Part shown: positions 60,629 through 61,819 of the stretch, piece after piece
How the letters are laid out: every line of letters starts with the position of its first letter
Position numbering within the stretch: position 1 is the stretch's first letter
Virus record (IMG/VR): IMGVR_UViG_3300034196_000067
Span: 44,796-108,795 of that record
Strand: one strand, 5' to 3'
DNA from: a virus
DNA length: 64,000 nucleotides
Program-made: the position numbers and the translations under genes
Notes under the pieces: model-generated
The model's database searches: none
Seen by the model: the letters and a program-made list of their open reading frames with translations, nothing else
What the model was told of the DNA's origin: nothing

Positions 60629-61819
60629 ATGAAACACGTGACGGCGGTCATCGGGGCCAACTACGGTGACGAAGGCAAAGGCCTTGTCACCGACTACCTG
60701 TGCAGCGACGAGATGGACCTAGTAGTCCGCTTCAACGGCGGGGCGCAGGCAGGACACACCGTAGTGACTCCAGAAGGCCGCCGGCACGTGTTTCATCACT
60801 TCAGCTCCGGCTCTTTCAGGGGGGCGGCGACCTTCCTGAGCAAGTTCTTCATCCTCAACCCCATCGTCTTCGTGAGCGAGCTGCTCGAACTGGGGGAGTT
60901 ATCTCTCAAGCCGAAGATCTTCGTAGACAAGGACTGTCTCGTAACAACCCCATGGGACATGCTCCTAAATCAGGCCTTCGAGAGCTTGACGAAACGTTGC
61001 GGGAGCTGCGGGCTAGGCATCAACGAGACGATGGTCCGCAGTCGGCAAGAGCGGTACGCCTTGCGCTTCGAAGATCTCATGAAGGGACTTGATTGGATTC
61101 GGCAACGCCTCCGAGCCATTCGAGAAGAGTACATCCCTGTACGTGCCCATGACTTGGGGGTCGAGCTCTCCAAACAAGAGCACGCGCTGAGCCTCAGTGA
61201 AGGGATGATGGAGCACTTCCTCTACGATCTAGGAGTTCTGATCGGAAGAGTTAGACCAGCTACCTGGGACAGAACGTTCGTGAGGGCTCAAGAAGGGATC
61301 GTCTTCGAAGGCGCGCAGGGGCTTCGTTTGGACATGAGCCATTCGAACTATCCCTACGTCACCCATTCGAAGACCGGTCTTCCGAACATCGTGGCGCTCA
61401 TGAAGCAGGCTGAGATCAAAGACGCCCTCTCTGTCTACTACGTGACCCGCACGTATATGACTCGTCACGGGGCCGGACCACTTCCACACGAGATCTTCGT
61501 GCTGCCGTATCCCGAGGTGACGGACCCGACCAACGTCACCAACCCACACCAGGGCATGCTTCGGTATGGATGGCTCGACTACGATCACCTGCTTGAGGAG
61601 ATCCGGACTGACCTCAGCCGAGCGAAAGAGATCAGAGCTCTCCCCAGCGTGGCCATCACCTGCATGGATCAGATCGACAACGACCAGATCCAGCTCGTCC
61701 GTGGAGGCAGAAGATCTGGTATTCGTATCGAGAACTTGGTGAAGAAGTTCTACGACTCAGAGATCCTGAGCTGCGTGGCCTCTTACGGGCCAACAAGAGA
61801 TCACTTTCAAGAGTTCTAA
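60629..61819 (+). CDS. Adenylosuccinate synthetase family enzyme (PurA homologue; PurZ candidate)
   Basis: P-loop GANYGDEGKGL. VVRFNGGAQAGHTV. Divergent IMP-site loop GSCGLGINE (canonical TTGRGIGP). C-terminal TCMD replaces the (S/T)KLD GTP-specificity motif. TAGGAGAAAAC RBS. Confidence 0.7.
   Translation: MKHVTAVIGANYGDEGKGLVTDYLCSDEMDLVVRFNGGAQAGHTVVTPEGRRHVFHHFSSGSFRGAATFLSKFFILNPIVFVSELLELGELSLKPKIFVDKDCLVTTPWDMLLNQAFESLTKRCGSCGLGINETMVRSRQERYALRFEDLMKGLDWIRQRLRAIREEYIPVRAHDLGVELSKQEHALSLSEGMMEHFLYDLGVLIGRVRPATWDRTFVRAQEGIVFEGAQGLRLDMSHSNYPYVTHSKTGLPNIVALMKQAEIKDALSVYYVTRTYMTRHGAGPLPHEIFVLPYPEVTDPTNVTNPHQGMLRYGWLDYDHLLEEIRTDLSRAKEIRALPSVAITCMDQIDNDQIQLVRGGRRSGIRIENLVKKFYDSEILSCVASYGPTRDHFQEF

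Follow-up and report, generated by a model that had tools for sequence, protein, structure and literature searches.

A PurA-like phage protein outside the PurA and PurZ clades, encoded with a vWA-fold partner

Introduction

A 64,000-nucleotide stretch of virus record IMGVR_UViG_3300034196_000067 (hereafter the window) carries, at positions 60629-61819, an open reading frame (ORF) for a protein homologous to adenylosuccinate synthetase, PurA, in which several substrate-site motifs are altered. This raises the question of which reaction such an enzyme would catalyze in a phage. One possibility, put forward in the initial annotation of the window, is that the protein is a candidate PurZ and the phage has a 2-aminoadenine genome (Z-genome); the fallback given there was another purine-modification enzyme. 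Alternatively, the gene may encode an ordinary adenylosuccinate synthetase. We find that the protein falls into a third clade of the adenylosuccinate synthetase superfamily, distinct from both canonical PurA and PurZ, and that a vWA-fold partner is obligatory and co-inherited with it. Judging from the sequences, we consider it probable (roughly 60%) that the enzyme forms a unit with this partner, which has a metal ion-dependent adhesion site (MIDAS), and that it would carry out PurA-type GTP chemistry on a different 6-oxopurine, with a different amine, or both.

Results

The gene and its family

The ORF encodes 396 amino acids without internal stops and follows a Shine-Dalgarno sequence (AGGAG, 60619-60623). 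Its coordinates are identical to those of the JGI gene call on the source, the 209,442-bp JGI metagenome contig Ga0370509_0000001, in which position 88,584 is position 1 of the window. The product matches Pfam family PF00709 (Adenylsucc_synt) far beyond chance (E 3.1e-49), and its initial identification as a PurA homologue with the motifs GDEGKG and GGxxAGHT stands. Both motif changes reported at that stage were also found in place: SCGLGINE, which aligns to the E. coli loop TTGRGIGP, and TCMD, which replaces (S/T)KLD and aligns to E. coli TKLD. Beyond these, the aspartate loop is also remodelled, the catalytic Asp is kept, and the upstream gene at 59401-60324 encodes a conserved partner.

At E <= 1e-10 the family of PurA-like proteins (about 400 amino acids) comprises more than 7,900 clusters. 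We mapped the 120 best-scoring members, which are 42-69% identical to the PurA-like protein of the window, onto E. coli PurA and compared them with 18 canonical PurA and 13 PurZ sequences; family counts below refer to these 120. The gene and its motifs are as follows.

60629..61819, plus strand: PurA-like gene, 396 amino acids (PF00709, NCBIfam, neighbor-joining tree, AlphaFold2 model, Foldseek)
60665..60682, plus strand: P-loop GDEGKG; catalytic Asp (E. coli Asp13) present, and Asp in 120/120 family members
60737..60760, plus strand: GGAQAGHT; His41/Thr42 equivalents invariant, Asn38 replaced by Gln
61004..61027, plus strand: nucleotide-phosphate loop SCGLGINE (E. coli TTGRGIGP); Thr129 to Cys, Arg131 to Leu, Pro135 to Glu
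61460..61477, plus strand: TRHGAG; Val273 replaced by an invariant His
61541..61579, plus strand: aspartate loop NPHQGMLRYGWLD (E. coli GATTGRRRRTGWLD); Thr300 to an aromatic residue, Thr301 to Gln, Arg303 absent
61658..61669, plus strand: TCMD (E. coli TKLD); Asp333 retained, Lys331 to Cys

Comparison with PurZ

PurZ and PurZ0 start dZTP synthesis from dGMP and aspartate. Were the protein one of these, the phage would have a 2-aminoadenine genome, and two other genes of the window would encode the partners DpoZ and MazZ:

2304-4295: family-A polymerase (PF00476)
4874-5272: MazG-like PRA-PH protein

The presence of these two genes speaks for PurZ, as do the PF00709 membership of a phage protein and the name "2-aminooxy adenylosuccinate synthetase" that PHROG 1211 and RefSeq give to its relatives. 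Position 13 speaks against it. Asp13 is replaced by Ser in 100% of 147 phage PurZ and PurZ0 proteins, a change that defines both groups, and is kept in 99% of canonical PurA (PMC12884076); a phiVC8 PurZ mutant, S14D, loses its substrate selectivity (10.1101/2025.10.22.683976). The PurA-like protein and all 120 of its closest homologues have Asp at this position, against Ser in 13/13 aligned PurZ sequences. The nucleoside triphosphate pocket also differs, with Cys at 331 and Asp at 333 where PurZ has Phe and Asn/Gln.

The overall similarity of the protein is nearer to PurA. It reaches 68.5 bits on the NCBIfam PurZ model NF038379, which has a cut-off of 300. BLAST likeness to the S-2L and phiVC8 PurZ proteins is restricted to the P-loop region, and in a sequence search of solved structures PurA entries came first (E 1.6e-28), with phiVC8 PurZ (3e-8) and S-2L PurZ (6.6e-5) matching at the N-terminus only. 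When the AlphaFold2 model of the protein (predicted local distance difference test score, pLDDT, 92) was compared with known structures by Foldseek, canonical PurA took ranks 1-28 and 30-32 (TMq about 0.75) and archaeal PurA of P. horikoshii rank 29; PurZ and PurZ0 structures followed at ranks 33-43, with S-2L PurZ, PurZ0 and phiVC8 PurZ at 33-36 (TMq 0.58-0.63). PurZ is also a short, archaeal-type protein of 340-365 amino acids encoded beside DatZ/MazZ or DutZ/DmtZ, features that the 396-residue PurA-like protein does not share.

The PurA/PurZ phylogeny and pocket alignment that had been suggested as a check likewise separate the protein from PurZ, the alignment through Asp13 and Asp333. Our neighbor-joining tree (Poisson distance) held 53 sequences: 18 canonical PurA (E. 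coli and 17 from IMG/VR contigs), 13 PurZ (S-2L and phiVC8 included) and 22 relatives of the PurA-like protein. PurZ sequences form a bipartition with 100/100 bootstrap support, and the PurA-like protein falls outside it, in a clade of its own that is also supported at 100/100.

Z-cluster genes were sought in an annotated stretch of about 84 kb of the roughly 209-kb contig; that the other 125 kb or so lie outside this stretch is a further point for PurZ. As had been noted initially, there is no HD-type dATPase in the 64-kb window, and we found none in the 10 kb downstream; the search for datZ beyond the window, covering the same 84 kb or so, was also negative. Searches by tblastn with DatZ, MazZ, DpoZ and p26 of S-2L and phiVC8 gave only noise on the window plus 10 kb, and the annotated stretch holds no Pfam matches to HD, DUF550, DUF5664, dUTPase or NDT. 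The polymerase and MazG-like genes are indeed there, but their proposed identity as DpoZ and MazZ did not hold. The polymerase scores 141 bits against a cut-off of 500 and 64 against 350 on the DpoZ_1 and DpoZ_2 models and fits best a generic Pol I-type enzyme; for the MazG-like protein, no similarity to S-2L MazZ could be detected.

The database names, finally, are a lumping artefact. PHROG 1211 matches true PurZ (phiVC8, S-2L) together with Asp13-type proteins of Mycobacterium and Rhizobium phages, and because it lumps the two, "2-aminooxy adenylosuccinate synthetase" appears in RefSeq records of Rhizobium, Vibrio and about 200 Mycobacterium phages (NC_070966, NC_070967 and NC_023737 among them). 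Names derived from PHROG 1211 are probably an over-propagated annotation that would wrongly predict Z-genomes. According to a recent PurZ phylogeny, the majority of phage PF00709 proteins are not PurZ (PMC12884076).

Position 13, the NF038379 score, the tree, the structure ranking, Asp333 and the absence of the partners from the annotated 84 kb or so led us to reject PurZ and a 2-aminoadenine genome. At the level of sequence the PurZ reading is refuted, and we regard it as extremely improbable; the phage DNA is expected to contain ordinary adenine, and the gene is expected to lie outside the 2-aminoadenine pathway.

A third clade in phages and bacteria

A place within canonical bacterial PurA, the outcome that the initial annotation had set against its own proposal, was not observed either. 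The PurA-like protein lies outside the canonical bipartition of the tree and is about 25% identical to canonical PurAs, and on the NCBIfam PurA equivalog models it scores 139 bits against 402 and 137 against 395.6, about one third of the cut-offs.

Large phage contigs, isolated phages and the genomes of many bacteria all carry members of the family. The isolated phages are about 200 cluster C mycobacteriophages, 10 Rhizobium phages and 6 Vibrio phages; the bacteria, in which at least 584 species gave matches, include Clostridium, Rhizobium, Methylobacterium, Acetobacter, Massilia, Geomonas, Acidobacteria and others. The clade can be recognized by the motifs HGSCG, RHG(A/N)G, N-x-[aromatic]-Q-G and TCxD together with the upstream partner, and the window has CGSCG, RHGAG, NPHQG, TCMD and the partner. 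Databases already list such proteins, some under the name "PurA-like adenylosuccinate synthetase" and some, wrongly, under PurZ; the conserved partner is a new finding. A full-text literature search found no paper on the function of the clade, its active-site signature, the vWA partner or the J-domain/kinase-like gene described below, and none of the three proteins matched a PADLOC defence model.

A conserved core with rebuilt pockets

We take the roles of PurA residues to be those of the E. coli structural literature. PurA and PurZ have in common that they act on a nucleoside 5'-monophosphate and L-aspartate. In PurA, the 5'-phosphate of inosine monophosphate (IMP) is bound by Asn38, Thr129, Thr239 and Arg143', the ribose by Val273 and Arg303, and L-aspartate by Thr300, Thr301, Arg303 and Arg305. 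At these and neighboring positions (E. coli numbering) we found the following.

Asn38: Asn in 18/18 PurA and 13/13 PurZ; Gln in 119/120 family members
Ile126: Ile in PurA and PurZ; His in 118/120 family members, Cys in the window protein
Thr129: invariant Thr in PurA and PurZ; Cys in 116/120 family members
Pro135: Pro in PurA, Ala/Ser/Glu in PurZ; Glu in 119/120 family members
Arg143: Arg in PurA and PurZ; unconserved in the family
Ser240: Ser in PurA and PurZ; Arg/His in the family
Val273: Val in 18/18 PurA and 13/13 PurZ; His in 120/120 family members
Thr300: Thr/Val in PurA and PurZ; aromatic in 119/120 family members
Thr301: Thr in PurA and PurZ; Gln in 120/120 family members
Arg303: Arg in PurA, Leu/Arg/Lys in PurZ; absent from the family through a one-residue deletion in 120/120
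Lys331: Lys in PurA, Phe in PurZ; Cys in 119/120 family members
Asp333: Asp in 120/120 family members; Asn/Gln in PurZ

The family retains the catalytic residues Asp13, Lys16, His41, Thr42, Gln224, Thr239 and Asp333, and Asp13, His41, Gln224 and Thr239 are invariant in 118-120 of the 120 members. In its PF00709 fold with Asp13, Lys16, His41 and Gln224, the protein agrees with canonical PurA. It departs from canonical PurA in the IMP 5'-phosphate ligands, of which Thr239 alone is kept (N38Q, T129C, Arg143 unconserved), and in the aspartate and ribose ligands, with an aromatic residue at 300, Gln at 301 and no Arg303, a residue with a published role in PurA (PMC8342488). One of four consecutive Arg residues is left in the aspartate loop. 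The guanine-specificity motif (S/T)KxD, which reads TCMD, keeps its Asp and has exchanged Lys for Cys (119/120); because Asp333 is kept, GTP is likely to be the phosphoryl donor. In all three pockets, the lost contact residues have been replaced by fixed residues, and this purifying selection on the new residues points to new specificity and not to decay or drift.

Canonical PurA (E. coli P0A7D4; PDB 1cg0 and 1ade) thus shares with the PurA-like protein its Pfam family, the long-form fold, GDEGKG, and Asp13, Lys16, His41, Gln224 and Asp333. It differs in belonging to another clade (about 25% identity), in the exchanges N38Q, T129C, V273H, T301Q and K331C, the loss of R143 and R303 and the aromatic residue for T300 in the family, and in the pairing of the PurA-like family with a vWA gene. 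PurZ and PurZ0 (PDB 6fm1, 7odx, 7vf6) resemble the PurA-like protein as phage-borne PurA paralogues with altered substrate-site residues, and neither has Arg303 at the PurA position (PMC8342488). PurZ is set apart by Ser13, Phe331 and Asn/Gln333, and by its retention of N38, T129, R143, V273 and T301.

These comparisons bear on the main rival to our interpretation, that the protein is an ordinary adenylosuccinate synthetase isozyme using IMP, aspartate and GTP, an auxiliary source of AMP/ATP in infection or stress with the vWA protein as regulator or scaffold. No catalytic residue has been lost, the guanine-specific Asp is present, the whole fold resembles PurA, and the gene is set among nucleotide-metabolism genes (ribonucleotide reductase, ThyX and a downstream dCMP deaminase); one aspartate-loop Arg and Thr239 remain, and Arg/His240 and His273 could compensate for the losses. 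Yet at least seven contact positions that are invariant in PurA and PurZ have changed to other invariant residues, the scores fall far under the equivalog cut-offs, and purine biosynthesis offers no parallel to the obligatory vWA partner, often accompanied by a J-domain/kinase-like gene. We consider an ordinary isozyme somewhat unlikely.

An obligatory vWA partner

The upstream gene, preceded by AAGGAG at 59386-59391, encodes the partner, and a small ORF lies between the two genes.

59401..60324, plus strand: partner gene, vWA fold, 307 amino acids (family about 305); PHROG 2971, with function unassigned in PHROG
59401..59418, plus strand: partner N-terminus MGGGSF; family M-G-x-G-[RS]-[WF], Gly2 essentially invariant
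59614..59631, plus strand: MIDAS-like D72-N-T-G-S-M77; D72, G75, S76 and M77 invariant
60324..60620, plus strand: 98-amino-acid ORF between the two genes, with a hydrophobic stretch; outside the conserved module

The partner has no Pfam, NCBIfam or PADLOC match. It has the alpha/beta fold and the MIDAS motif D-x-S-x-S of a vWA protein, and D-x-[ST]-G-S-M is present in 249 of 254 partner homologues.

Gene order ties the two proteins together. Among the best 80 bacterial and best 80 viral loci, the sample for all neighborhood counts given here, the partner lies directly upstream on the same strand in 72 of the bacterial ones (seven of the eight misses are contig ends) and directly upstream in 78 of the viral ones. 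The two genes are 11-200 nt apart in most loci; in the window the distance is 305 nt, with the partner upstream on the same strand. Homologues with 39-49% identity sit directly upstream in six loci that are otherwise unrelated: the window and the Clostridium drakei chromosome, two long metagenome contigs, and the phages RHph_TM30 of Rhizobium, where the pair is gp018/gp019, and Va1 of Vibrio. In mycobacteriophage Pleione the homologue is gp266 (E 6e-34), paired with the PurA-like gp268. Across isolated phages, the Mycobacterium, Rhizobium and Vibrio groups with PurA-like matches are also those with partner matches, and PurZ phages in the collection are without a partner. Over 126 loci, the pairwise distances of one protein correlate with those of the other at r 0.77, against a permutation maximum of 0.065.

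The small ORF between the genes is not part of this pattern. In 160 other loci and in phage Pleione, no homologue of it lies between the two genes, and a conserved small protein between the genes was rejected as a candidate: the 98-residue ORF and Pleione gp267 are unrelated to each other or to anything in the 160 loci.

The partner gene itself may sometimes be interrupted. In some cluster C mycobacteriophages the partner match spans 61% of the partner length, an HNH endonuclease is annotated under the match in Mycobacterium phage Quasimodo (NC_054721), and the homologue in phage Sauce (BFVD A0A3G3M5V4) has 595 amino acids, roughly double the usual length. These cases suggest an insertion of the mobile-element or intein type.

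The N-terminus of the partner raises the possibility of a protein-directed ligase, in which the amine would be Gly2 of the partner after removal of Met and the product an N-terminally purine-linked protein. Full-length partner homologues begin with MG in 239 of 254 cases, and extensions are absent: in a profile search of 1.84 billion proteins, profile position 1 fell on residue 1 in most of the 150 matches listed. The Arg and Thr residues for the aspartate carboxylates have become aromatic, hydrophobic or amide residues, as for a site that does not bind a dicarboxylate, and the two proteins are strictly co-inherited. Mutual information, on the other hand, gave no clear sign of coupling between the partner N-terminus and the aspartate loop, the first residues of the partner are modelled fairly confidently (pLDDT 87 for the first 10-residue block), it would be odd to employ an enzyme for stoichiometric self-modification, and the idea is purely inferential. 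We know of no precedent for a protein-directed purine ligase of this sort, and we judge it improbable.

A second idea is a non-catalytic GTPase switch, comparable to MoxR-vWA or chelatase pairs, in which the PurA fold would serve the vWA protein purely as a nucleotide-dependent partner. The residues needed solely for purine chemistry (Asp13, His41, Gln224, Thr239) are nevertheless the near-invariant ones, and such a switch seems very improbable to us.

The wider module

Upstream of the partner, 45 of the 80 bacterial loci and 27 of the 80 viral loci have a third gene. Its product, of about 350 amino acids, has a J-domain with an HPD motif and, after it, a protein-kinase-like domain from which the usual catalytic motifs seem to be missing. 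Pleione gp265, annotated "serine-threonine kinase," is of this type, so that the Pleione module spans gp265-gp268. In 27 of the 80 bacterial loci an NrtR-type Nudix/winged-helix regulator lies upstream (NCBIfam "ADPR responsive transcriptional repressor," E 3.7e-51, below cut-off), and a few bacterial loci add NAMPT. On plasmid pAtS4e of Allorhizobium ampelinum, where the core pair is AVI_RS27890/27885, the three genes overlap stop-to-start, the first two being named "hypothetical" by PGAP; directly 3' of this operon is a gene set encoding an AAA ATPase, DUF5682 and DUF4132.

The window phage has the two-gene core plus the unrelated 98-residue ORF, with neither the J-domain/kinase-like gene nor NrtR; neither tblastn nor a hidden Markov model search found a homologue of the J-domain/kinase-like gene in the window. 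A 203-residue family upstream of the partner in 29 viral loci was considered as its equivalent and rejected, being lineage-specific and unrelated to the J-domain/kinase-like gene by hhalign.

Known systems of vWA proteins with AAA+ ATPases likewise encode a MIDAS vWA protein beside a nucleotide-using enzyme with which it works, and the kinase-like protein added in bacteria is a further similarity. They differ in that the enzyme here has a PurA fold whose ligase site is intact, in the J-domain of the kinase-like protein, and in the absence here of a PP2C phosphatase.

Proposed function

The chemistry of the enzyme is probably of the same kind as that of PurA, on different substrates. As in PurA, GTP-dependent phosphorylation of the purine O6 would be followed by displacement by an amine; the 6-oxopurine acceptor would differ from IMP in its 5' or sugar part, the amine would be other than free aspartate, or both, and the reaction may take place in complex with the vWA partner or be gated by it. 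In a phage of roughly 209 kb, the pair may serve as an auxiliary nucleotide-metabolism or host-conflict module, with a possible role in nucleotide- or NAD-related conflict of phage and host. The fallback of the initial annotation, another purine-modification enzyme or unusual purine metabolism, is still the best reading, and the altered substrate-site motifs on which it drew are confirmed.

PurA chemistry on a purine analogue other than IMP has a parallel in the ToyG-type adenylosuccinate synthetase homologues of gene clusters for 7-deazapurine nucleoside antibiotics (toyocamycin). ToyG is not known to have a vWA partner, and 7-deazaguanine synthesis genes were not seen in the annotated stretches.

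Several observations weigh against a new substrate handled together with the partner. The aspartate loop can be aligned only to within one residue, so the remaining Arg could correspond to Arg305. The new basic residues Arg/His240, His273 and His126 could rebuild IMP and aspartate binding in another way. Mutual information between the two proteins (average product correction, 94 non-redundant pairs) gave scattered top pairs and no clear contact signal, and their physical interaction is something we infer from gene order and co-inheritance. Finally, the third gene of 45/80 bacterial loci is missing from the window, and the phage version may therefore differ from the bacterial one.

More specifically, and tentatively, the clade may be a new enzyme class that joins the purine C6 to a group other than aspartate. 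That group could be Gly2 of the partner, or the product could be an N6-substituted or non-5'-monophosphate adenine nucleotide, for instance via ITP/dITP or an ADP-ribose-related hypoxanthine, acting as a signal or in repair in phage-host nucleotide or NAD conflict. The ADPR-type NrtR regulator beside 27/80 bacterial operons points to a role in such conflict. We give this proposal appreciably less than even odds.

Neighboring genes in the window

NrdJ, ThyX, a dNMP kinase (a weak match), a HAD nucleotidase, PolA and the MazG-like protein, all listed initially, were all found, and a dCMP deaminase gene lies downstream of the PurA-like gene. The remaining features are these.

9821-10600: dNMP kinase, weak match
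11418-12254: ThyX
54478-56541: class II ribonucleotide reductase
57511-58095, plus strand: HAD/polynucleotide kinase (PNK)-phosphatase-like protein (PHROG 415)
58151-58516, plus strand: A1S_2505-family phage non-structural protein N-terminal domain (NCBIfam E 2.4e-45; PHROG 2072)
61852-61927, plus strand: tRNA with anticodon CUA (amber suppressor; tRNA-Pyl by ARAGORN; Rfam tRNA 42.9 bits, E 5.8e-8)

The HAD/PNK-phosphatase-like and A1S_2505-family genes lie immediately upstream of the module, and in phage Pleione a polynucleotide kinase (gp262) is also near it. A 246-residue ORF at 58492-59232 has no family match. The CUA tRNA, which lies 33 nt 3' of the PurA-like stop codon, is the sole tRNA in the 64 kb; TAG is the stop codon of 12 of the 51 predicted genes of the window and the long late genes are uninterrupted when read with the standard code, so the window shows no visible recoding of TAG.

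On the minus strand, positions 21152-53633 hold a block of very large genes, with products of up to 1546 amino acids, without any Pfam match on record; these presumably encode virion or structural proteins, in a phage lineage that has been sampled poorly. When window positions 55000-64000 were compared with INPHARED by megablast, no related phage was found.

Discussion

For hundreds of phages with Asp13-type proteins, the window phage included, a Z-genome should not be predicted by the criteria used here. The clade to which these proteins belong is present in thousands of phage and bacterial genomes, and nothing comparable to its constant pairing of a putative purine-nucleotide ligase with a MIDAS/vWA protein has been described. 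A module common to bacteria and large lytic phages fits the pattern of defence and counter-defence modules. Culturable carriers include Bxz1-type mycobacteriophages, RHph_TM30, Va1, A. ampelinum S4 with pAtS4e, and Clostridium carboxidivorans P7. With this clade, the PurA superfamily would gain a third functional class, one that keeps the catalytic core but has remodelled pockets for the nucleotide handle and the amine donor.

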